Below, one piece after another: positions 1,578 to 12,256 of a DNA stretch of 64,000 nt. How positions within the stretch are numbered: position 1 is the stretch's first letter; each line of letters begins with the position of its first letter. Below the pieces are notes generated by a model. It saw nothing but the letters and a program-made list of their open reading frames with translations. It was not told the DNA's origin and ran no database searches. A program made the position numbers and the translations under genes. The stretch is from a virus (lineage: Duplodnaviria > Caudoviricetes): positions 11,996-75,995 of IMG/VR virus record IMGVR_UViG_3300014664_000015; one strand, given 5' to 3'.

Positions 1578-3698
1578 TTATTTCTTGGTGACTTTAACCA
1601 GACCACGCCAGTCAAGCGGGGCCACACCCGCATCAATGCGCACCTTGAATGCGGCGCCGTCAACAGTGAAGCCCTGCTGCTGCTCCAGATACGGCGTATC
1701 AATACCATCCAGGTACGCCACTTCAATGGTGTCGCGTCCTTTTGCAGCCGCCAGGTAATAATCAGTCGGGCTGCTGTCATCCAGTCGTGCTTCTGAAAGT
1801 ACTGTGGCAAAGTTCCGGATCGGGTTCTCAATACCACTATTGGCATCTGCCCCCGGCACACTGGCGGATTTGATAAGCTGATTAGCACGGGACTCAATAG
1901 CTACCGGCGTCAACGCAAAAGCCGGACGGATATTGAGATGACGATCGCCAGATTTCTGCAACAACATCGCCTTACGTCCATCATCCAGTCCTTCAATGCT
2001 CAGGTCAGCCGCTATCAGGTTGCCATGGTCAGCATGGAACAACGGTTTGCCATCAGACATTTTCGGATTGCTGGTCAGAACTGCCCACACCAGATCGCCC
2101 ACGGTCGCACGTGCCGCACCACCCATGGCATATGGGATACGGGTCAGCGTATCCATGTCATCGTTGATGATGGTCTGCCGATCGATACTAAACAGTTCGC
2201 CGTAAGTCGCCAGCGCAATGGGTTCACCACGATCTTTCATGGTGACATACTTATATTCCGCTCCGGCACGGACCTTGCGAAGGGTCGGGAAAGATTCCAG
2301 ACCAGCACGATGCGCGGTTTTGAAGTCAGTCAGCGTGCCCTTACGGGTCCACTGGTCAAAGGTTTCGCTGGCTTCATCCCAGCCCAGCAGCGCGGCTTTA
2401 TGCGCCACATCCATCAGGATATTGCCAAAATCGCTGCTGCTGTGAGTGAATGCCAGCCCCACCATTGCCAGTGGAGAACCGTAGCCGGAGATACCAATCC
2501 CGCGATCCACAAGGGAAGCTCGCGCCAGCTCACGCAGGGTATAGCCGTTGTAGGCGTTATCCTTCTCGGCCTGCGCATAGCCCGCGCGGCTCATTACCGC
2601 AGCGCGAATGGAATCACCGACCAGATTGCCGTTTCCGGCGTAAAGATGAATAGCGCCAGGACCGGCACTCGGCGTAGTCCCTGCCGCCAGCGCCTGGAGG
2701 AGCCTGTCACGGGCTTTTTCCGCCGTGCAGGAGAAGTCGGCCAGACACTCCGCCTTCAGCGTCGCGAAGGTCGGGAACGCCTCAAAAACAGCGGAAACCG
2801 TGTTCACGCGTTCCGCGTTTGCCGTCTGCATCTGCTGTTGCAGCTGCTGGGCCAGCGCAGTGATATCGATATTAGTCATCTGCTGCGCGGGCTGTTGTGG
2901 CGCTGGCGGGTTCAGGTTCGCCTGTACCGGCGCAGGCTGCTGTACCGGAGCAGGCTGCTGTGGCTGATTCACCGGAGCTTCGGCGCGCGGCGCAAAAAGA
3001 GATTTAATCTGTTCTGGCATGTTCTGGTAATCCTTCAGTTTATTTTCATTCACACAGGCCGCAGCCTGTAGTTCAGGTTCAAGCGTGTCAGCGAAACCTT
3101 TCTCCACTGCCTCGGCCCCGTTAAGCCAGGTCTCCGCTTTCAGCATCGCTTCCAGTTCCTCCTGCCCCAGTCCGGTTTTATTTATATAGGCGCTGAGCAT
3201 CAGGGCTTCGTTACGATCAAGCCATGCGGCATAATCGCGCATGTCATCAGAATCCCCGGCGATCCCGCCCCACGGTTTGTGGACCATGATCCAGGCGTTT
3301 TCCGGCATGTGCACCGTGGCGCCGGGCAGGCAGACAATCATCGAGGCCATGCTGGCCGCTACCCCGTCTACCCAGATATCCACTTTCGCTTTCAGCCGCG
3401 ACAGGGTGTTGTAAATGGCAAATCCCTGCATGACATCGCCGCCGGGGCTGTGGATATGCAAATCCACCGCGCTGGCGTCAAACACTCCGGCTTCTTTACA
3501 GTCCGCGACGAACTGCTGGGCCGTGATGCCCCAGCCGCCGATCACGTCATAGAGGAAGATTTCGACGCGCCCGGCAGACAGCGCGCGGATTTCGTACCAG
3601 CACTGACCGTTTGCCGCATCGACACCCGCCAGGCTGGCGCGGGGGTTAATCATCATCGTCCGGCTCGCGCCGATCGTCTTTTGGTTTTGCCGTTGCAT
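1578..3698 (-). CDS. ClpP-like prohead protease-major capsid protein fusion
   Basis: IHSPGGDV, GVAASMAS and MVHKPW Clp motifs at N-terminus, capsid-like C-terminus; start at 3698 has AAGGAG SD. Confidence 0.92.
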   Translation of the reverse strand: MQRQNQKTIGASRTMMINPRASLAGVDAANGQCWYEIRALSAGRVEIFLYDVIGGWGITAQQFVADCKEAGVFDASAVDLHIHSPGGDVMQGFAIYNTLSRLKAKVDIWVDGVAASMASMIVCLPGATVHMPENAWIMVHKPWGGIAGDSDDMRDYAAWLDRNEALMLSAYINKTGLGQEELEAMLKAETWLNGAEAVEKGFADTLEPELQAAACVNENKLKDYQNMPEQIKSLFAPRAEAPVNQPQQPAPVQQPAPVQANLNPPAPQQPAQQMTNIDITALAQQLQQQMQTANAERVNTVSAVFEAFPTFATLKAECLADFSCTAEKARDRLLQALAAGTTPSAGPGAIHLYAGNGNLVGDSIRAAVMSRAGYAQAEKDNAYNGYTLRELARASLVDRGIGISGYGSPLAMVGLAFTHSSSDFGNILMDVAHKAALLGWDEASETFDQWTRKGTLTDFKTAHRAGLESFPTLRKVRAGAEYKYVTMKDRGEPIALATYGELFSIDRQTIINDDMDTLTRIPYAMGGAARATVGDLVWAVLTSNPKMSDGKPLFHADHGNLIAADLSIEGLDDGRKAMLLQKSGDRHLNIRPAFALTPVAIESRANQLIKSASVPGADANSGIENPIRNFATVLSEARLDDSSPTDYYLAAAKGRDTIEVAYLDGIDTPYLEQQQGFTVDGAAFKVRIDAGVAPLDWRGLVKVTKK

Positions 3699-5166
3699 CT
3701 GGCATCGCTCCTTTGTCGTTGGCGGCGTCAGAATCAAACACCAGCCCGTGTTGACGGTTAAACTCGGTTTCACGCAGTCGCTGGCGTTTAACCTCCTGCG
3801 GGTTTTTACCCCGCGCCCGTGCCCATTCCGCTTCGGTACCAGCACCGCCACGAACAATGGCTTTCCAGGCATTAGCCTCTTTACCCGGATCAATCCACGG
3901 CATCACCGGGCCAAGATAAAGCGCGTTATATAGAGAATTCGGATCCACATCCGGCGGAACTTCAACGCCGCTCAGCAACGCCATCGCCAGCCATGCGCGG
4001 TAAACGGGCCGGCTGTGCTGGCCGACAAACCACTGTTGCAGGACGTTGTACCCTTCGAAGCTCTCCACCAGCTCCTGACGCTGGGAGCTGTAGGTGCCGT
4101 TATAGTCCCGGGCAATGCTGGAATAGCTGCCGCGCGTGCCTGCGGCCACGGCCCGCATCTGTCCGTTTCGGAATTCATAGAGGTGAACATTCGGGCGATT
4201 TGATTCCACCATGCCCAGGTCTTCACCCGGGCGCAGATCGTCGTAAATCATGCCCGGGGCGATATCGTAATGACGCTGGCCGCCAGGAGGTGAAAACTCC
4301 CCGTCATCACCAAGAGACTGCGCATCACCGCGCTTGATATAGAACCCCAGCGCGGCGGCAATACGGGCGGCGACGCGTTCACTCTCTTCATAATCCTTGA
4401 TGTCAGAAAGACGGGTAATGACTCCGTGGATCAGGCTGATACCGCGCAACTGGTGCAGACGCTTGCGCTGCGCAAGGTGAAGCATGTTTTCAGCTGAGAC
4501 GGTTTTAAGTTCAGCGCTGAACCGCGTCATATTTGCCGGGTGGTACTTGTAAACGCGGTAGCCGACGGGACGTCCCCAGTCGTTCACAATGATGCCCTGG
4601 CGAACCTGCTGGCCGGCGGTGCTGTTAAGGTTGAACGGAACAAAATCCGCCTCCAGCATTTCCAGCGAGAACGGTACGGAGGTGGAATGTTGCAGACCCG
4701 GCACATTCCCCCTGACCAGTTGCGTGAACACTTCCCCGTCACGCAGTGCTGAACGCAGCAGCAGGCGTTCGGCTTCCGGGCGGGTGAACATGCCAGTCAC
4801 CTCAGGACGCACGGACCATTCAGCCCAGAGCGCCGAAAGTTTCCCGGCGAAATCGGAATGAAGATTCCCCTCCAGATCGAGGGGCTGAGGCTCAACATGG
4901 ATCCCGTTGGCACCAATCACCCGGTCTTCCATTTTGTCGAACAGGCCGATCACCAGATCATGGTTTTCATCAAGCCACCGGGCCTGTTCCCGCAGGGACT
5001 GACCTGCTGCAAACACAGAGGTGTCCGCCGACTGGCTTTGCTTTTTCGCCTTGTGCAGCCGTGACGGATTTGCCGCTTCATACGCATTAAGCCGGAGACG
5101 ATCCCGCTCGCGTGCCGCGGCCCACCCGGGGGAAATTGCCCTCAGTGTTCTTTCAAGAATGCCCAT
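3646..5166 (-). CDS. Portal protein, lambda family
   Basis: 506 aa; RDGEVF, QLRGIS and PWIDP.KEA motifs. Confidence 0.93.
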   Translation of the reverse strand: MGILERTLRAISPGWAAARERDRLRLNAYEAANPSRLHKAKKQSQSADTSVFAAGQSLREQARWLDENHDLVIGLFDKMEDRVIGANGIHVEPQPLDLEGNLHSDFAGKLSALWAEWSVRPEVTGMFTRPEAERLLLRSALRDGEVFTQLVRGNVPGLQHSTSVPFSLEMLEADFVPFNLNSTAGQQVRQGIIVNDWGRPVGYRVYKYHPANMTRFSAELKTVSAENMLHLAQRKRLHQLRGISLIHGVITRLSDIKDYEESERVAARIAAALGFYIKRGDAQSLGDDGEFSPPGGQRHYDIAPGMIYDDLRPGEDLGMVESNRPNVHLYEFRNGQMRAVAAGTRGSYSSIARDYNGTYSSQRQELVESFEGYNVLQQWFVGQHSRPVYRAWLAMALLSGVEVPPDVDPNSLYNALYLGPVMPWIDPGKEANAWKAIVRGGAGTEAEWARARGKNPQEVKRQRLRETEFNRQHGLVFDSDAANDKGAMPDATAKPKDDRREPDDDD

Positions 5167-5174
5167 AGAACGCC

Positions 5175-5390
5175 TTACAGAAAGTTAGCGAGTTTGTACG
5201 AACCACCACGGCTGTTGACCGCGCGCCAGCGACGCTCCCAGTATTCGAGCTCATCGCGCAGCGCCTTCGGATCGTGGTTGGTAATGGCGCGACCGTTTAC
5301 GCCGGTGAAAGAGATACTCTTGCCGTCCAGCGAGTCCTGGTAGGCCTGGCGTACCATCACCAGCGTTCTCCAGATGTCGTCTTTCTTCAC
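5175..5390 (-). CDS. Head-to-tail joining protein (gpW-like)
   Basis: 71 aa between terL and portal. Confidence 0.75.
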   Translation of the reverse strand: MKKDDIWRTLVMVRQAYQDSLDGKSISFTGVNGRAITNHDPKALRDELEYWERRWRAVNSRGGSYKLANFL

Positions 5391-7507
5391 AGCCAGCCTC
5401 CTCCCCTACCGGAAGATCCCAGCCAGCTGCCGGAAAGCGTGTTTTCTTTCTCAGGCTCAGCCCTGACTTGTGGCTGAACGGTTTTGTTTTTTTTCACGGT
5501 AATCTCCCTGGGGCGTTCCCCTTCATGAATATTTGGGTTGTGATCCTGCGGCTCAGCCCATGCAGGAGGTTTTTCCCAGTCGCGAATTTTTTCGTAGCCG
5601 CGCAGAACCGCGACGGCGTGGGCATAGCAGAACAGGTCAAAGGCTTCGTTGGCGCCCTTGCCTGGCTTACGCCATTTGCCATCCACGCCGCGCTCTTCGT
5701 AGGTCAGTTCCTCATAGAACCATTCCCCCAGCCAGTCGGGAAAATGGATATAGCCTGCTCCGGGAGTCTCACGATCAAGGTTATTGCTGAGCTGATCTTT
5801 GAGCAGGTCGGTTTGCAGCAGATACACCGGCACCTCGCCACGCGCATCAGCGCGACGGTCGCTGCGTTCGGTATTATTCGGGTGAGTTTTGGTAATAATT
5901 TTCTGGCGTTTTGTGCTGTCGCCCTTGATCAGATAGACACGCTTACCCAGACCATCCCGGCGACACTGGCGCCAGAATTTATAGGCATTATCTGTCACCC
6001 CTTCCTCACCGCCGCTGTCGACGGCCATGGCCAGCACCGGCATACGCCGCGTCGGATCAGACTGAAGTGCGTAAGTTTTTTCCAGCACATCGGATACAAG
6101 CAGCAGCCAGTCCTCCGGATACGCGCCGGGGTGGACTGGCTCCGCCTCGCCATGTTCATTGCAGCGCAGGGACTGGCGAATGTTGTAGCGATCCACAAGC
6201 CAGCGTTCACCGTTTTCGCCATAACCAATTATCTGCACGACGAAACGGCGCTTTTTCCCGCCCTGAACGTCGACGGCTGCCAGCAGGAAACGCACCTTCG
6301 GCGGTACCAGGCGTTTACCGTAATCCTCCGCACGCTGCATCAGCACATCGGCGCGTCGCTGTTCGCTGGCCGAGCGCGGCAGGTACGGCAGCCCCCAGTC
6401 GGTGTTGATAACCGCCTTGAGGGTTTCTTCGCTGCCGGTAGCCTCATACTCCTGCTCAGCCGTAAGCAGTTTGTACACCAGCTGCGCCCAGGTCTGGTAC
6501 GCGGCTGCGGGCCCCTCCATCCAGAACGACGCTATGCGCGAGCGTCGCGGCTCACCGGAAATCTTGCCGTCCCGGTCAATACTCTGACCTTCACGCAACC
6601 AGACACCCACCCCGTTAAGCTCGCGCTTTTTATCTGCGGTGATAATGGTGCTGCAATGCGGACAAAGCAGATGAGCCGACTCACTGGCTTTTACCGGATC
6701 AGGTTCATCGCGGTATCCGGTCATCGCCTCCATCGCAGGCTGAAAATATTCACCACAATGCGGGCACGGCCAGTACCAGCGACGGCGATCCCCACGGTTG
6801 TACAGAGAAAGCGCGCCTGTCGTTGGTGGTGCTTCATGGGGAGACTTCCGGCGCCATTTGCTGTCGCGAATGTCCCGGCCTGGCGAACACTCCACCAGAG
6901 TCATCCCGGCGGACATAAAGGTGGTGGTACGCTTGGAAGCCAGGGTAAAACCGTCACCCTCGCCGTCGATGTCCTCAGGGAAGCGGTCATAATCGGTGAG
7001 CGCTACACATTTGAAATCTGACGAGGACATGATGTTGATGGAAGGCCAGCCAATCTTGAGATAGTTGCCCGCCAGAAATGTACGATCATGCACGTTGTTG
7101 TCGTTTCGCAACGGGCTCAGGCGTTTCGCCACTTCAGGACTGACACGAAACGTTCTCGCCAGACGTTTTTTAGAGTGCTCACGCGCTTTCTCTTCGGTCA
7201 TCTGAACGACGAGCATATCGGACGGGTCACAGACAATGTTGTATACAACCCAGCCATCCACCAGGCCGATCGTTTTCCCCGTTCGTGCCGGTCCAACAAA
7301 CACCACCGCATCGTATTCACGCATCGCGAGGCAGTTCATCGGCTCTATCACATAGGGAGCGACAGCAGGGTCCCACGGTACCGAGTTACCGGCTCCCATA
7401 GGTACGCGCATAAATTTTTGAACCGCCTCAGCCACAGGCATACGGCGCGGGGCTTTGAGAATGGCGGAAGCGTTACGCCTGACTTCCGCTGCCGTGGCCT
7501 GTCGCAT
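5387..7507 (-). CDS. Terminase large subunit, gpA family
   Basis: Walker A-like GPARTGKT, CPHC zinc motif, AVDVQ nuclease motif. Confidence 0.95.
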   Translation of the reverse strand: MRQATAAEVRRNASAILKAPRRMPVAEAVQKFMRVPMGAGNSVPWDPAVAPYVIEPMNCLAMREYDAVVFVGPARTGKTIGLVDGWVVYNIVCDPSDMLVVQMTEEKAREHSKKRLARTFRVSPEVAKRLSPLRNDNNVHDRTFLAGNYLKIGWPSINIMSSSDFKCVALTDYDRFPEDIDGEGDGFTLASKRTTTFMSAGMTLVECSPGRDIRDSKWRRKSPHEAPPTTGALSLYNRGDRRRWYWPCPHCGEYFQPAMEAMTGYRDEPDPVKASESAHLLCPHCSTIITADKKRELNGVGVWLREGQSIDRDGKISGEPRRSRIASFWMEGPAAAYQTWAQLVYKLLTAEQEYEATGSEETLKAVINTDWGLPYLPRSASEQRRADVLMQRAEDYGKRLVPPKVRFLLAAVDVQGGKKRRFVVQIIGYGENGERWLVDRYNIRQSLRCNEHGEAEPVHPGAYPEDWLLLVSDVLEKTYALQSDPTRRMPVLAMAVDSGGEEGVTDNAYKFWRQCRRDGLGKRVYLIKGDSTKRQKIITKTHPNNTERSDRRADARGEVPVYLLQTDLLKDQLSNNLDRETPGAGYIHFPDWLGEWFYEELTYEERGVDGKWRKPGKGANEAFDLFCYAHAVAVLRGYEKIRDWEKPPAWAEPQDHNPNIHEGERPREITVKKNKTVQPQVRAEPEKENTLSGSWLGSSGRGGGWL

Positions 7508-7510
7508 GAT

Positions 7511-8026
7511 TTACTCCTCTTCTGGCATATCCTCCTGTTCTGGTGAGTCGGCCTGCTCAACTTTGAGAGCTATCTGGTCGCGCAGATCGTCAATAACCTG
7601 CTGCACCCTGACAACTGCGGAAGGGGTCATGGCGCAGTCTCGTTCAAGAATGTCGGGTAACGTCTCCAGCACCTGAACCATTGCTTTTGCCATGGAGGAA
7701 AATTCTCTGGTGACTTCTGACGCCGGGATCAGCTCCCCTGTTTCCTGCTGAAACTTGAGCCTTTCACGCTCAGACTGAAACCAGGCTTTACGATCGGGGG
7801 GAAGCATTTTGTCAACGTCCACCAGCTCCGACGGTGTGGTACTCGTCAGCAACTCCCTGAGGATATCGGTGATGGCATAAAGCTTAAGTTTCGGATTGCT
7901 GCCCGGTGCTGGCTGAACATTTGCAAGCTTGCTCGCGACCGTCTGGCGGTGCAGATCGGTAATGGCTGCCAGCTGCGTGATATTCAGCCGGAAATTTTTG
8001 AGTTCGTTATCCATGATGGTGAACAA
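7511..8026 (-). CDS. Terminase small subunit (Nu1/DUF1441-like)
   Basis: N-terminal HTH (ITQLAAITDLHRQTV), directly upstream of terL. Confidence 0.88.
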   Translation of the reverse strand: MFTIMDNELKNFRLNITQLAAITDLHRQTVASKLANVQPAPGSNPKLKLYAITDILRELLTSTTPSELVDVDKMLPPDRKAWFQSERERLKFQQETGELIPASEVTREFSSMAKAMVQVLETLPDILERDCAMTPSAVVRVQQVIDDLRDQIALKVEQADSPEQEDMPEEE

Positions 8027-8132
8027 AAAATAGTCATTTCGACATCCTGCTAATGATCAGGACTGAAATATCAAGAGGTTAAACAGATGATGATGAAACC
8101 CATAAAATGCAAAAAACTAGCCGTTTCCCGCG

Positions 8133-8144
8133 TGTCCTCGCCCC
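8133..8144 (-). other. Candidate cosN cohesive end of prophage 1
   Basis: Minus strand G^GGGGCGAGGACA^CGCGG parallels lambda G^GGGCGGCGACCT^CGCGG; cosQ-like AGGTACT 22 nt upstream; just before terS. Confidence 0.7.
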
Positions 8145-8207
8145 CTCGGTGTTCATAATCGCCAGGAGTACCTTTGCCAAATGAGAGATATTGTCGTTTG
8201 AGTGCAT

Positions 8208-8232
8208 AAAAAAGCCCCGCATGAGCGAGGCT
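8208..8232 (-). terminator. Terminator after DUF2513 gene
   Basis: AGCCTCGC...GCGGGGCT hairpin plus T run. Confidence 0.7.
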
Positions 8233-8256
8233 GCAATAAAGATGATGAAGTGCTTT

Positions 8257-8664
8257 TTAAGAATTAAGGATATTGTCTATTTTTTTCTGAACGAAACCAT
8301 CAAACAATCGCTTTGAGACATCTACTAATGTTCCGATGCTGGCATCTTTGAAGCCATTTTTAACTGTATTCCACACTTCTTTGTTTCTTAGAGCTTCCAG
8401 GAAATCATGCCCATTTGCTGTCAGGCGTAACGGTAACACCCCCCACGAACCACCATCATCAGAACCTTCGAAATAACCGAATCCATATTTCCCATCTGTT
8501 CTGGCTATTAGATTGCGGTCGTCTAACAAGCGCATATGGAATAAAAATTCCTCCGTCCTGTAGTCAAAACCTGCTTCCTGAAGTTTTCTGATATTTGTTT
8601 GTGGCTCACCAGATGCTTCAAAAGCCTCCAAAAGACCTTTCAGATATTCATGATTGATTTTCAT
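8257..8664 (-). CDS. DUF2513-like moron protein
   Basis: LRLTANGHDFLEALR..EVW motif; AT-rich gene between lysis and packaging modules. Confidence 0.75.
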   Translation of the reverse strand: MKINHEYLKGLLEAFEASGEPQTNIRKLQEAGFDYRTEEFLFHMRLLDDRNLIARTDGKYGFGYFEGSDDGGSWGVLPLRLTANGHDFLEALRNKEVWNTVKNGFKDASIGTLVDVSKRLFDGFVQKKIDNILNS

Positions 8665-8697
8665 AAAATCCCCTTCACGAGTAAGTGTTTAATCTAG

Positions 8698-8734
8698 CAC
8701 TATCACAGGCATTCAATAAATGCCTGCTGCAATG
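8698..8734. repeat. Hairpin motif (CATTGC-A-stem-loop-GATAGTG on minus strand), copy A
   Basis: CAGGCATT/AATGCCTG 8-bp stem; ends resemble the copy at 9213-9248. Confidence 0.55.
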
Positions 8735-8774
8735 TCTATATCCCGTTTAGGCGATTTAAATAGCAATTGACATT

Positions 8775-8797
8775 AAAAAACCGCCATGCGGCGGTTT
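8775..8797 (-). terminator. Terminator closing the non-coding cassette
   Basis: AAACCGCC-GCAT-GGCGGTTTTTT. Confidence 0.85.
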
Positions 8798-9143
8798 GTA
8801 AAGGTGAAAGGCAGACCAAGTTAACGCGAATTATTAGCTTGTTCAGGTATCCCGACCAGTCCTAAACCGGCATGGGGCCGAACAATCCAACGTCACCTGA
8901 GCCCCTTGGCTTTTCATGCATTAACCAAACAGCGTGACCTGTAAGGCGGGAGACTCCAACGTCCCAGACGCGGGTGGTAAAACTCTCAAGATGGTCGCCC
9001 ATCCCGGAAATTCTCCCTTCTCATTAGCCTTTCGATTTCTGTTACCCCTGGCTCAGGAACCCTGATGTCACGATCAACGGTTGCTTAAGGGGAAGTCCAA
9101 AAACTGGGTCAAAAAGACCTCCTTGAACTTTCCGTGGGTTAAC
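8775..9143 (-). ncRNA. Candidate large structured ncRNA (RNase P specificity-domain-like)
   Basis: No ORF of 60 aa or more; TATTAT -10-like hexamer just upstream; long closing helices; nested stems with a GNRA loop; ends at a terminator. Confidence 0.6.
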
Positions 9144-9212
9144 AACCAGATAATATAAAAAAATAATCTAATTGCATAGTTCCATCGCCAAAGGAGTCCG
9201 TCTAAAGATAAT

Positions 9213-9248
9213 CATTATCAAGCCCACCAGCAGCCAGGCTTTGTCGTG
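9213..9248. repeat. Hairpin motif (CACGAC-A-stem-loop-GATAATG on minus strand), copy B
   Basis: AAGCCT/GGGCTT stem; ends resemble the copy at 8698-8734. Confidence 0.5.
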
Positions 9249-9399
9249 ACTAGCAGTCAGCATCAGCTCTGAAGCAATAATTAATACTGTTCTATAAGTT
9301 AAAATCCAAATATAACGAATTTGAATATTAATTTTAATATTCAACCCTGTTTGTTGAACAATGAACTACAGTCAAAGCCTCCTTGTAAGGATGGCTTAT

Positions 9400-9657
9400 T
9401 TAGCCGCCCTTCCCAACTTTTGGATTTCGGTTCGGAAGGGTACTTTTTCCTTGGCAGTTCGCCTGCCACGCTTTGTTATGCGCCAGGATGTCGCGCTTCG
9501 TCTGGCGGTCTAGCACATCCCAGTCGTGCGCTGTGCCGTAAATGGGTTTAATCCAATCGCAAGCGGTATCCACTACCTCAACCCTTACGGGTCCAGTTGT
9601 CCCGCAGCTCGCGATCAACATCGTCGCCAGGCATATGGTTAACATTCTGCTGTACAT
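9400..9657 (-). CDS. Outer-membrane spanin lipoprotein (Rz1-like)
   Basis: Signal peptide with LIASC lipobox; overlaps inner spanin. Confidence 0.85.
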   Translation of the reverse strand: MYSRMLTICLATMLIASCGTTGPVRVEVVDTACDWIKPIYGTAHDWDVLDRQTKRDILAHNKAWQANCQGKSTLPNRNPKVGKGG

Positions 9658-9854: not shown

Positions 9855-10484
9855 TCACACCAGAACGGATTTCGCCAGGTTAAACAGCGCGCGGCGTTTA
9901 TCCATACCATTACGTCCACCGTTGATAAGCAGCGTAACGCGCTCAACATCGCCGGAATGAAGCAGGCAACCGCGGGAGGCATAGAACCATGCAGCTGAAC
10001 GCGCAGCATATTCATCCTGTTCAAGCAGCTCCGGGTGGGTAACAAGGTCTAGTCTCAACGCGTGGCCACAACTGCGATAGTTGCTCAGGCCGGTAACCTG
10101 TTTCAGCCCGCGACCGCGATATTTCCAGCCATCACCGGCAACCTGATTGCCAAGGTGTTCTTTTCCCCACTCACCACCGTATACCAGATTGGCGATCGCT
10201 TTCTGGTTTGCCGTTTGCGTTGCCGTTCTGCCAAGTGCGGCGGCCTGCTGTTGCGTGATGCGGTGGCTACCGAACGTCGGTACCAGGTTTTCAACCGCGT
10301 AATTCAGGCTCTCCACCAGCCGGGTAAATCTGGTGCTTTCATGCCCCATCTGGGCAATAAACATCGCCTGATCAAGCGGTGCGGTTATACCGTATTCCTT
10401 CATAGCGGCGTCGATATGCGGAAACCAGCGCGCAGCTAACCCGGCGCTGATACCAGCCGCCTTCTGAAATTGTGCTTTGTCCAT
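9855..10484 (-). CDS. Endolysin, glycoside hydrolase family 19
   Basis: AQMGHES, YRGRGLKQVTG, INGGRNG motifs. Confidence 0.95.
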   Translation of the reverse strand: MDKAQFQKAAGISAGLAARWFPHIDAAMKEYGITAPLDQAMFIAQMGHESTRFTRLVESLNYAVENLVPTFGSHRITQQQAAALGRTATQTANQKAIANLVYGGEWGKEHLGNQVAGDGWKYRGRGLKQVTGLSNYRSCGHALRLDLVTHPELLEQDEYAARSAAWFYASRGCLLHSGDVERVTLLINGGRNGMDKRRALFNLAKSVLV

Positions 10485-10765
10485 TAGTGCCTCAGATGAT
10501 CAACCAGACGTGCAACGTTGCCTTTGACGGCCACCAGCACTGAAAGAAATATGATATTGGCCGCAATGGTGGCCCATGATGAATGCGGGTAAATCCCGCA
10601 CAGATACGCCAGCGGTACAGCGCTGTAAGTGACGGTAATCAGCCAGGCTAAACGCGAAATCCATGGCCGATGCCGCGAATCACCACGGCGATAAAACATC
10701 AGAGTAATCACAACTCCGGCGCAGAGCAGCGCGTTGATAGTTGCTGTTGGGTCATTTAGTACCAC
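10484..10765 (-). CDS. Holin-family membrane protein
   Basis: Three TM segments, directly before endolysin. Confidence 0.8.
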   Translation of the reverse strand: MVLNDPTATINALLCAGVVITLMFYRRGDSRHRPWISRLAWLITVTYSAVPLAYLCGIYPHSSWATIAANIIFLSVLVAVKGNVARLVDHLRH

Positions 10766-11138
10766 CTGAACCTCCCCGGCGCGTTATCAGCGCCACCAGC
10801 GAGCCGATGTCCTGCTTGTTCAGGAACGTAAGGATTTGAACGGCTAACGCAGAAGCGATTACGGCACCGATAGCATCCAGAGGCTTATCGGTGTACCCCG
10901 TCCAGGACGTGAGTTTTGAACCCAACAGCCCCGAACAAAGAATGCCGACGATATACGACACGAAGAAGTATGCCAGGCGACGTAACACACTCAGGTCAGC
11001 CGCTGTCGCTATGTAGAATACGGCGCCAGCAAATGCACCAAAAACGACACCGTAATCAGTTCCGGTCAATAGACCGTAAACACTGGCTCCAGTCAAAGCT
11101 AAACCGGCCAGCCCCGTGCCGGAAAATGGATCGGACAT
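10752..11138 (-). CDS. Putative holin/antiholin membrane protein
   Basis: Multiple TM segments, first gene of lysis cassette. Confidence 0.8.
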   Translation of the reverse strand: MSDPFSGTGLAGLALTGASVYGLLTGTDYGVVFGAFAGAVFYIATAADLSVLRRLAYFFVSYIVGILCSGLLGSKLTSWTGYTDKPLDAIGAVIASALAVQILTFLNKQDIGSLVALITRRGGSGGTK

Positions 11139-11478: not shown

Positions 11479-11586
11479 TGTGGCGCCGGGTGCCTCCCGG
11501 TGACTTATCTCTGGTTATCAAAGTCGCGCGCATACCTGCAAATAGCAGTTAACCAGACGCCCCACCGCTTAGATGGGATTCACCAC
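11479..11586 (-). ncRNA. Structured RNA motif, copy 1
   Basis: GTGGTGAATCCC...ACCGGGAGGCACCCGGCGCCAC multi-stem; TTGACC-18-TAAGTT promoter immediately upstream. Confidence 0.65.
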
Positions 11587-11695
11587 ATGCATAACTTACT
11601 CAGGATATATTCACGCGGTCAATAGTTTATCTGTATCGACAAAAAAAGCCTGCTCGGCAGCAGGCATAGTTGCTAAGTTGGCAATAGCTGAGAGA

Positions 11696-11808
11696 GTGGT
11701 GCCGGGTGCCTCCCGGTGAGAATTACTCCAGCAAACATTCCCGCGTCTGAGAGGTTTCCTTTTCAGGTAACTGCTGGAACGCCCCTCCGCATAGGGGGAT
11801 TCACCACC
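11696..11808 (-). ncRNA. Structured RNA motif, copy 2
   Basis: GTGGTGAATCCCCCT...ACCGGGAGGCACCCGGCACCAC; followed by terminator at ~11641-11665. Confidence 0.65.
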
Positions 11809-11898
11809 AAAATGCTTTCAGAACACATCCATTCCGCAGGATGCTTAAATAGCATATGTGCAGTACAAAGAATCTGCCAAGTAATCAGATGAATATAT

Positions 11899-12090
11899 TC
11901 ATTTCAGTGGCACAGACAGTGGGCCTTCAATCACTTCAGCCTCACCGTTATGGCAAATATCATCACCTCGTGTCAGATGCCAGACACCAGTTATTGTCTG
12001 GCCCGTTTCAAGATCCTCAGTGATACCGTCGGTGTAGTAAGCTACCTGCACTACGCCGTTGTGCTGTATCCAGTAGAAACCTTCTTTCAT
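11899..12090 (-). CDS. Small hypothetical phage protein
   Basis: 63 aa MKEGFYWIQHNG..., AGGAG SD. Confidence 0.7.
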   Translation of the reverse strand: MKEGFYWIQHNGVVQVAYYTDGITEDLETGQTITGVWHLTRGDDICHNGEAEVIEGPLSVPLK

Positions 12091-12179: not shown

Positions 12180-12256
12180 TGGTCCGCCATCGAGGATTCG
12201 AACCCCGAACCACAGAGGTAGAAGCTCCGTGCTCTTTCCAGTTGAGCTAATGGCGG
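12180..12256 (-). tRNA. tRNA-Arg(UCU)
   Basis: 77-nt cloverleaf: CCGCCAT/ATGGCGG acceptor, anticodon loop CT-TCT-AC, TTCGAAT T-loop, encoded CCA. Confidence 0.93.

Follow-up and report, generated by a model that had tools for sequence, protein, structure and literature searches.

ROOL and GOLLD are prophage-encoded, pseudoknotted RNAs whose function is unknown, and their covarying loop contacts, first read as tertiary pairs, proved by cryo-EM to be intermolecular bridges (PMC12286853). GOLLD is over 800 nt long (PMC12286853), as against ~369 nt for the element described here, which lies in the 64,000-nt stretch of viral DNA that was analysed (the window). The two are the closest to this element in kind, although they are not homologous to it. 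All three are stand-alone, large, multi-helix, pseudoknotted prophage ncRNAs without a dedicated protein partner, and covarying loop-loop contacts are prominent in each. With its ~369 nt the element is also shorter than ROOL (~580 nt), and it occupies the lysis/terminase junction of lambdoid prophages of the Enterobacterales, whereas ROOL and GOLLD lie beside tRNA arrays. Rfam searches matched it to neither ROOL (RF03087) nor GOLLD, whether at the gathering score or at E≤10, and there is no sequence relation.

A second comparison is with the pRNA of the phi29 family, whose loops are mutually complementary, covary between relatives and pair hand in hand to build a ring. Both are phage RNAs with a promoter of their own (a putative one for the element) and two complementary, covarying loops. 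Like the pRNA gene, the element adjoins packaging genes, but its slot is a general moron slot; unlike pRNA, it has no Rfam match. The carriers, unlike phi29, use ordinary TerS/TerL proteins of several unrelated types, and these systems are not known to need an RNA. The lambda-type morons (bor and others) share with the element the same slot, a promoter and terminator inside the late operon, and a patchy distribution; the difference is that the product here is a structured RNA, not a protein. Based on the data below, we conclude with high confidence that window positions 8775–9143 are a structured ncRNA gene and represent a new family in temperate phages of Enterobacterales.

Gene unit, distribution and genomic setting

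The ~369-nt non-coding RNA gene spans 8775–9143 on the minus strand (RNA position i is window position 9144 − i). Its conservation edges are sharp, with an onset exactly at 9143, at GTTAAC, in all homologues and a stop at the terminator; homology of E. coli to the window is limited to 8760–9144, where the carriers have no annotation of any kind. The original prediction had drawn attention to an ORF-poor minus-strand interval with a TATTAT just upstream and a strong terminator, and both signals are in place. The intrinsic terminator (8797–8775) is kept in 23 of the 24 copies and shows one compensatory pair, and TATTAT is present at 9155–9150, 6 nt upstream of 9143, as the −10 hexamer of a putative sigma-70-type promoter (9150–9177, minus strand) with a 16-nt spacer and ATGCAA (9177–9172) at −35. 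The −35 hexamer of the window copy is weak (3/6) and lies below the promoter-scan threshold. Across 22 aligned copies, the hexamer positions alone are conserved upstream of the RNA (TTGCxx/TTGAxx, 16-nt spacer, TATCAT/TATTAT), and in one homologue, L009, the scan picks up TTGCGA-16-TATCAT. From these hexamers we infer promoter activity upstream of 9143. The unit has the generic features of a stand-alone bacterial ncRNA gene: a predicted promoter, a terminator, covariation that maintains base pairing on one of the strands, and no ORF that is conserved.

The window copy does contain an ATG-initiated ORF of 46 codons (8862–9002), and a small protein-coding gene, formed by this or another ORF, was considered as an explanation. 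We find it barely credible: the start is lost, or stops and frameshifts intervene, in many of the 24 homologues, and substitutions keep base pairing instead of coding. The homologues thus refute the 46-aa product, and the outcome that the original prediction had named against itself, conservation of this ORF in place of the RNA, is not what they display.

We collected 24 distinct homologues of 362–388 nt, all from enterobacterial prophages; the hosts of these prophages include E. coli, Citrobacter, Serratia and relatives. Among complete E. coli genomes, 20 of 5426 (0.4%) contain the element. A blastn search of 50,697 deposited phage genomes gave no match to it, and of 401 genomes searched within the order the query genome alone carried it, two further short matches falling within coding regions and being due to chance. 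Scanning with a pattern built on the 3′ conserved block yielded no further, more divergent members, and some matches from scans of metagenomes and genome collections, including a contig of Bryobacterales, were dropped as chance after blast. Over the whole window no Rfam family matched at the gathering score; the hits obtained at E≤10 with window positions 8600–9400 and with two divergent homologues were all at chance level (for example MIR397, snoRNAs and the terminator portion of STnc130). This bears out the earlier statement that no described family could be recognised. We found no published paper that prints the core sequences, though the element may correspond to an unnamed entry in a catalogue of 10,006 candidate viral RNAs.

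The RNA gene invariably lies directly after the lysis cassette, ahead of terminases of unrelated types (gpA/DUF1441 in the window; PBSX-type and others in other carriers). This accessory slot, bounded by lysis genes on one side and packaging genes on the other, agrees with the proposal that the RNA is carried as a phage moron. The tRNA that the phage was said to encode is also there, as tRNA-Arg(UCU) at 12180–12256. A conserved neighbouring protein partner was sought among the carriers, and none was found apart from the lysis genes. In the window, the RNA gene is co-oriented with the late operon and its terminator stands just before DUF2513 and the terminase genes, an arrangement that would suit a cis-acting element of the late transcript or of the downstream gene, such as a leader, attenuator, processing signal or packaging-related site. 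We consider such a role improbable, since the downstream genes vary among carriers, with unrelated terminase families and, in the main E. coli type, a gene on the opposite strand, and since the unit carries promoter hexamers of its own. The strand-specific G-U excess described below also argues for selection on the RNA and not on a DNA site.

The covariation-derived fold

The fold obtained from the 24 homologues comprises 88 pairs, with 95.5% of cells paired, and forms at least 14 conserved helices and a pseudoknot. Compensatory (both-sided) changes occur in 37 pairs, compared with 18.4 in shuffles, and none of 500 shuffles attains 37; sliding the partner strands drops the paired cells to 33–50%. 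On the minus-strand RNA, G-U/U-G pairs number 299 and A-C/C-A pairs 7, and therefore the minus-strand RNA is the selected product. Support for the structure rests on covariation, not on fold energy, which for the single sequence is unremarkable (z = −1.75). The 24 sequences amount to perhaps ten lineages of a single bacterial order, which limits the power of the covariation analysis. In the resulting model, the 5′ part is made up of a long hairpin in which a perfect Shine-Dalgarno-like AAGGAGG lies half-buried, one kissing hairpin and an invariant stretch of 20 nt. Long-range helices close the 3′ multi-branch part, which also contains a hairpin with a GNRA cap, the other kissing hairpin and a hypervariable arm. 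The two parts would be tied together by a 6-bp loop-loop helix.

All elements lie on the minus strand. The 5′ hairpin S1 (9090–9133; RNA 11–54) has 98% of its cells paired, with A15-U50 replaced by U-G in two sequences. It holds GGAAAGUUC, which looks like the CR-I motif of RNase P RNA, and AAGGAGG (9124–9118), followed by UUG (9112–9110); AAGGAGG and UUUG show little or no variation, and AAGGA is paired with UUUUU via two invariant G-U and three A-U pairs. Hairpin Ha (9062–9077; RNA 67–82) presents one side of the kissing contact in its 6-nt loop (9072–9067) and has one compensatory pair in its stem. Then comes the near-invariant block GGGUUCCUGAGCCAGGGGUA (9043–9062; RNA 82–101), in which 19 of 20 positions are invariant in 24/24 copies, so that its pairings are beyond the reach of a covariation test. 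The block includes a CCUG-AGC-CAGG hairpin, and its CCUGAGC is perfectly complementary to an invariant GCUCAGG at 8902–8896.

These 5′ features could also be read as directed at translation: AAGGAGG and UUG would draw 30S subunits or ribosomes to a mini-ORF of 12 codons, and the RNA would act as a sensor of translation capacity or as a ribosome titrator, with ribosome loading remodelling the fold by way of the mini-ORF stop in the stem of the kissing hairpin. The sequence offers several points in favour of this idea. AAGGAGG, the UUUG that follows and the spacing of 5 nt are constant or almost constant in 24/24 copies; AAGGA is held by the five A-U and G-U pairs alone, the latter never changing to G-C; the frame and the position of the stop are retained in 24/24, with UGA changed to UAA in one; and this stop falls within Ha, whose loop forms the kissing contact. 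The peptide itself is unconserved, with eight variants and variable sites distributed 7/2/2 over codon positions 1/2/3, and the mini-ORF was rejected as a peptide gene. Retention of the frame needs no coding explanation, because the region is nearly invariant in nucleotides throughout, and purine-rich strands are frequent in RNA stems. We regard a translation-directed RNA as unlikely.

The 3′ part is organised by long-range helices. S4 joins GAAAGG (9028–9033; RNA 111–116) to CCUUUC (8806–8811; RNA 333–338) with 97% of cells paired and compensatory changes in two pairs (A-U to G-C and G-C to A-U), and S5 joins GGGAGA (9012–9017; RNA 127–132) to UCUCCC (8948–8953; RNA 191–196) with 98.6% of cells paired and compensatory changes in three pairs. 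Hairpin S6 (8987–9006; RNA 138–157) has compensatory changes in 7/8 pairs and a GNRA loop in 18/24 sequences. Hairpin S7, CGUC-UGG-GACG (8960–8970; RNA 174–184), is paired in 93.7% of cells, with U-A replaced by G-C or G-U in three sequences, and the first of two copies of GACGUUGGA starts with the 3′ strand of this hairpin. Stem S8 and hairpin Hi (8924–8947; RNA 197–220) show compensatory changes in 5/8 pairs, and the loop at 8938–8933 is the other kissing side. Helix S9, formed by GCCAAG (8905–8910; RNA 234–239) and CUUGGU (8815–8820; RNA 324–329), closes the variable arm; it is paired in 100% of cells, with A-U changed to G-C in two sequences. In the hypervariable arm S10 (8833–8891; RNA 253–311), compensatory changes affect 10 of the 12 aligned pairs, the alignment of the arm being uncertain. 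Its sequence is swapped in a cassette-like manner, yet every homologue folds the same long bulged hairpin; in the window copy it contains the second copy of GACGUUGGA and the “CR-V-like” CCGGUUUA.

Resemblance to RNase P RNA

The original prediction saw in this RNA an RNase P specificity-domain-like fold, that is, either a divergent RNase P-like ribozyme or a non-catalytic decoy that binds the tRNA elbow through an S-domain-like double T-loop module. The resemblance is easily appreciated. The element is similar in length to type A RNase P RNA (RF00010; 377 nt for E. coli M1 RNA) and shares with it a GNRA-capped hairpin, and the window copy contains a CR-I-like GGAAAGU, ACAGAAA and UGAGA. Other look-alikes are GGUAACAG, CCACCCG and UUUCACCU, the last being the end of M1 RNA, which the 3′ end of the element, CCUUUCACCU, resembles. 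In addition, the prophage carries a tRNA-Arg gene, and the P7/P10-type helices GGGU/ACCC and GGUAA/UUACC are 87.5% and 95% compatible with the homologues, through G-C to G-U type changes alone. The homologues nonetheless largely refute this interpretation, which we now hold to be very improbable. Unlike type A RNase P RNA, the element has no P4 pseudoknot, no P1, no autonomous S-domain and no model match, and its look-alike motifs either pair otherwise or are unconserved.

The covariance models, which had been proposed as a check, returned no RNase P family at E≤10 for the element or for two divergent homologues. When RF00010 was applied to the virus record from which the window is taken and to the chromosome of an E. 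coli carrier, the element went unmatched, and the true rnpB of that chromosome was recovered at 318.6 bits. Comparison of the element with E. coli rnpB by blastn gave scattered matches of 7–16 nt, partly non-collinear, plus terminator similarity.

Among the helices originally drawn by hand, the GNRA-capped hairpin GGGAUGG-GCGA-CCAUCUU (“P14”, our S6; compensatory changes in 6/7 pairs) and the terminator survive, and covariation does not uphold most of the others. The extended closing helix fails in each of its segments, GUUAAC/GUUAAC being paired in 86%, GUUCAAGG/CCUGAAC in 69% and GACCCAGUU/GACUGGUC in 56%, without any compensatory change. No P1-like helix is left to join the 5′ and 3′ ends, and the 3′ segments CCUUUC and CUUGGU pair with the internal GAAAGG and GCCAAG. 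The proposed “P12” (UC-GAAA-GG, 75% paired) is displaced by the covarying long-range helix to RNA 333–338, and “P13” (GGGA-GAAU-UUCC, 80% paired) by that to RNA 191–196. Both are thus 5′ strands of long-range helices, so this region does not constitute an autonomous S-domain. The T-loop module fares no better: in UGAGA (RNA 121–125) the U and G are invariant, but the fifth position has A in only 13 of the 24 sequences, with C in 9 and U in 2; in ACAGAAA, 5/7 positions vary among homologues.

The candidate inner helices GGGU/ACCC (87.5%), GGUAA/UUACC (95%) and CCUG/CAGG (100% paired) have invariant 5′ strands and one-sided changes only. The first two would require a pseudoknot across S4 and S5, and the P7/P8/P10-type nucleotides fit alternative partners about equally well (RNA 5–8/97–100 and 164–168/247–251). 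A P4 pseudoknot of CR-I (GGAAAGUCC) with CR-V (CCGGCUUA) is unsupported in the element. GGAAAGU sits in a local hairpin instead, with GGAAAGUUC pairing to GGACUUCC within S1 in 98% of cells with one double change, and CCGGUUUA, whose resemblance to CR-V had been pointed out, lies unconserved at the tip of the hypervariable arm. The UGGA repeat is real insofar as GACGUUGGA occurs twice (8955–8963 and 8886–8894), but the second copy is present in 1/24 homologues, and the duplication is unique to this window. Judged on sequence, cleavage or binding of tRNA by this RNA is unlikely. A tempting but wrong annotation is thereby removed, evidence for a phage-borne RNase P-like ribozyme being absent here.

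Mode of action and the kissing contact

We propose, as the best overall explanation and on balance a probable one, that the element is an ncRNA gene in a moron slot, with its own promoter and terminator and the fold described above, whose product may act through its shape. In the lysogen its own promoter would probably drive transcription, and during lytic growth the RNA would probably be made within the Q-antiterminated late transcript as well. By analogy with ROOL and GOLLD, we tentatively suggest, as the likeliest of the modes considered, that the RNA may act in trans through its three-dimensional shape, either in an architectural role or as a decoy, with a host factor, a phage factor or further copies of itself as binding partner. 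The mode of action as a whole can be inferred only weakly.

An Hfq-type regulatory RNA, base-pairing with host or phage mRNAs through a conserved single-stranded segment, would share its promoter-to-terminator organisation, U-rich tail and accessory location with many prophage sRNAs, and the model leaves some invariant stretches unpaired (for example, RNA 221–233 and 312–323). With its ~369 nt, 14 or more conserved helices and a pseudoknot, the molecule is, however, much more elaborate than known seed-pairing sRNAs, and conservation extends across the whole molecule instead of being concentrated in a seed. We give this possibility slightly less weight than the translation-directed one, and antisense pairing as the mode of action is unlikely. 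A CsrB-like GGA sponge was rejected on inspection, most GGA triplets being in stems and several unconserved.

Only a small number of large, intricately folded bacterial or phage RNAs lack a known function, and unexpected biology has come from every new class to date. Their location in prophages of the E. coli group places members of this family in the most tractable genetic systems, and the modest size of the RNA suits chemical probing and cryo-EM. If it binds the ribosome or a host factor, or self-assembles, an RNA-based function would join the known kinds of temperate-phage accessory gene. The long-range contact is clean and testable, with natural allelic variants at hand.

In that contact, the 6-bp loop-loop helix between Ha and Hi is paired in 99.3% of cells and shows compensatory changes in 5/6 pairs, and the homologues contain eight perfectly matched loop allele pairs. 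The sequence data fit kissing pairing within one molecule and between molecules alike. Two complementary 6-nt loops could pair hand in hand between molecules, so that the RNA assembles with itself into dimers, rings or cages like ROOL, GOLLD and phi29 pRNA, an arrangement that is conceivable but unlikely. Were the pairing intermolecular, the eight loop alleles would be specificity codes that keep the RNAs of co-resident prophages unmixed, and phages of the E. coli group would thereby gain their first RNA assembly of this kind. It is worth noting that only one copy, L011, has mismatched kissing loops, and that it is also without the terminator.

A discrete gene unit in the late operon

The RNA gene lies on the minus strand of 8775-9143, where an ORF survey of the window found no substantial reading frame. 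The strong intrinsic terminator predicted at its end is confirmed (stem 8797-8778, T-run to 8775), and a -10-like hexamer, TATTAT (9155-9150), is located 6 nt upstream of 9143. The window comes from an IMG/VR provirus record, in which the element forms part of a lambdoid late operon encoded entirely on the minus strand. Upstream are holin genes (10752-11138 and 10484-10765), an endolysin gene (9855-10484) and spanin-like ORFs; downstream are a DUF1441 small-terminase-like gene (7511-8026), a gpA-type large terminase gene (5387-7507) and a portal gene. A DUF2513 gene (8257-8664) is placed between the RNA's terminator and the DUF1441 gene; in other carriers the RNA is not accompanied by it. The head and packaging genes (3000-8700) are most similar to those of Citrobacter phage Chris1, with 92% of the query aligned at 79% identity. 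Further upstream, in the late-promoter region preceding the holin genes, a minus-strand series (11479-11587, 11637-11837, 11895-11995, 12180-12256) comprises two tandem STnc100 matches, a match to the Hfq-binding RNA isrI and tRNA-Arg(UCU) (12180-12256), an arrangement resembling the isrI/isrJ/isrK region of Salmonella prophage Gifsy-1.

Megablast identified 20 carriers among 5426 complete E. coli genomes, with matches confined to window 8760-9144 at 79-87% identity and falling where no feature is annotated. Blast-filtered pattern searches of viral, genome and metagenome collections yielded 24 different copies, complete or almost so and 362-388 nt long, all from one bacterial order, in prophages of Citrobacter, Serratia, Pseudescherichia and E. 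coli and in metagenomic viral contigs. The element is thus a discrete, mobile module. The family is rare: the RNA is absent from Chris1 and every other deposited phage record (0 matches in 50,697 genomes), and a survey of 401 genomes of the order matched only the query genome itself. Two weak matches in that survey were dismissed as chance, both being inside coding regions. Two distinct E. coli prophages likewise carry the module immediately behind Rz/Rz1-type lysis genes, and the genes that come next in them are terminases of other families and different small genes, one of them on the opposite strand. Neighbour clustering of the carriers recovered the upstream lysis genes alone, with no protein gene travelling with the RNA; a cis-acting leader is a less likely reading of such a module.

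Conservation starts at the same GTTAAC in all copies and, upstream of it, is seen only at two hexamers, TTGCxx/TTGAxx and TATCAT/TATTAT, separated by a 16-nt spacer, as one would expect of a genuine promoter. In the window copy the -35, ATGCAA, is a weak one. In most homologues the spacer between the two hexamers contains CCG(Y)TTCG (L009:1296-1323 in one copy, and aligned positions), frequently within a dyad such as the GCGAAA...TTTCGC of L009; this is a possible operator. At 9156-9171 the window copy, whose -35 is degenerate, carries an AT-rich spacer without it.

A covariation-supported fold with kissing loops

An RNAalifold consensus and an all-against-all column scan of the 24 aligned copies gave a fold of 14 helices and 88 pairs. 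It is 95.5% paired across the alignment, with both-sided changes in 37 pairs, a number reached in none of 500 shuffles (18.4 +/- 2.2); pairing falls to 33-50% when the 3' partners are displaced by 1-3 columns. Among the best-supported elements are hairpin S6 (RNA 138-157, counted from window 9143), usually GNRA-capped and with compensatory changes in seven of its eight pairs, hairpins S7 and S8/Hi, and the long-range helices S4 (111-116/333-338), S5 (127-132/191-196) and S9 (234-239/324-329). Also among them is a hypervariable arm (253-311), for which the alignment is approximate; its sequence is swapped in a cassette-like manner and its bulged-hairpin shape is retained. G-U/U-G cells number 299 versus 7 A-C/C-A cells, so it is the minus-strand transcript that is under selection, not the DNA or the opposite strand. 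Folded singly, the sequence has an unremarkable energy (z = -1.75); the case for structure rests on covariation.

The most striking element of the fold is a 6-bp helix between the loops of hairpins Ha (RNA 72-77) and Hi (RNA 206-211). Compensatory changes occur in five of the six pairs, and the 24 sequences contain eight perfectly complementary loop allele pairs. Only the copy of E. coli strain 53 (NZ_CP048359.1; L011:5002-5346) has mismatched loops, its 5' allele being CGUGAC and its 3' allele GUCGAG, which do not match; the terminator is lost as well, and this copy has probably recombined or is decaying. The matched loops could pair within one molecule or between molecules. Separately, the invariant CCUGAGC (RNA 87-93; window 9051-9057, minus strand) perfectly complements the invariant GCUCAGG (RNA 242-248; window 8896-8902); this match, at positions beyond the reach of covariation, could reflect a second conformation or an additional tertiary helix. 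UCAGG/CCAGG is present three times, giving CCUG three possible partners.

Two frames could suggest a coding gene. The 46-codon ORF (8862-9002) has lost its start, or gained stops or frameshifts, in many of the 24 homologues. A 12-codon frame following a perfect AAGGAGG and UUG (RNA 20-34) is intact in all copies, but its variable sites are spread 7/2/2 over codon positions 1/2/3 and it specifies eight different peptides, so the peptide is not under selection. On these sequence patterns the element is not coding.

Tests of the RNase P reading

The original prediction proposed an RNase P specificity-domain-like fold. No RNase P family of Rfam 15 matched the element or two divergent homologues at E<=10, nor did any other Rfam family match the RNA. 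RF00010 recovers the genuine rnpB of a carrier E. coli chromosome at 318.6 bits and leaves the element unmatched, both there and in the virus record from which the window comes. Compared directly with M1 RNA, the element shows only scattered 7-16-nt matches, and in the M1-like 3' end, CCUUUCACCU, the CCUUUC pairs internally with GAAAGG.

The three proposed closing helices are 86%, 69% and 56% paired with zero compensatory changes, their 5' strands being invariant and their 3' strands in or near the hypervariable arm. The P12-like UC-GAAA-GG (75% paired) and P13-like GGGA-GAAU-UUCC (80%) hairpins are displaced by S4 and S5, respectively, which carry compensatory changes and join these nucleotides to distant 3' segments; the stretch from the proposed CR-II to the proposed CR-III therefore lacks the local hairpins that an autonomous specificity domain has. 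Five of seven positions vary in ACAGAAA, read as CR-II, and the fifth position of UGAGA, needed as A for a T-loop, is A in 13 copies, C in 9 and U in 2. The supposed CR-V, CCGGUUUA, is at the tip of the variable arm, and a CR-I look-alike that had not been counted, GGAAAGU, falls in local hairpin S1. The second copy of the repeat GACGUUGGA is confined to the window sequence (1 of 24), and the first, which the original prediction placed in a hairpin loop, instead contributes its GACG to the 3' strand of S7.

The GNRA-capped hairpin designated P14 does hold. The GGGU/ACCC (87.5% paired) and GGUAA/UUACC (95%) pairings are possible; they change only from G-C to G-U type with invariant 5' strands, alternative partners fit about equally, and they would cross S4 and S5 as a pseudoknot. 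Model, alignment and fold tests thus leave the RNase P reading unsupported and support the broader one, a structured, previously undescribed RNA that the phage carries as a moron. A literature search turned up no paper printing the core sequences, but one of the unnamed candidates in a viral RNA catalogue of 10,006 may still be this RNA.

Proposed mode of action

The σ70-type promoter points to expression by the lysogen, and co-orientation with the late operon would have the RNA transcribed in lytic growth too. We tentatively favour, at rather less than even odds, a trans-acting RNA working through its shape on a host or phage factor, or on itself, because conservation extends over ~370 nt with at least 14 helices and a pseudoknot and no partner gene. 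A base-pairing sRNA is less likely. The nearest precedents in kind are ROOL and GOLLD, prophage RNAs that assemble into RNA-only cages; their covarying loop contacts, first taken as tertiary pairs, turned out to be intermolecular (PMC12286853). The SD-like AAGGAGG and UUG are invariant and weakly paired, and the short frame behind them ends in the kissing-hairpin stem, so ribosome loading there could remodel the fold.
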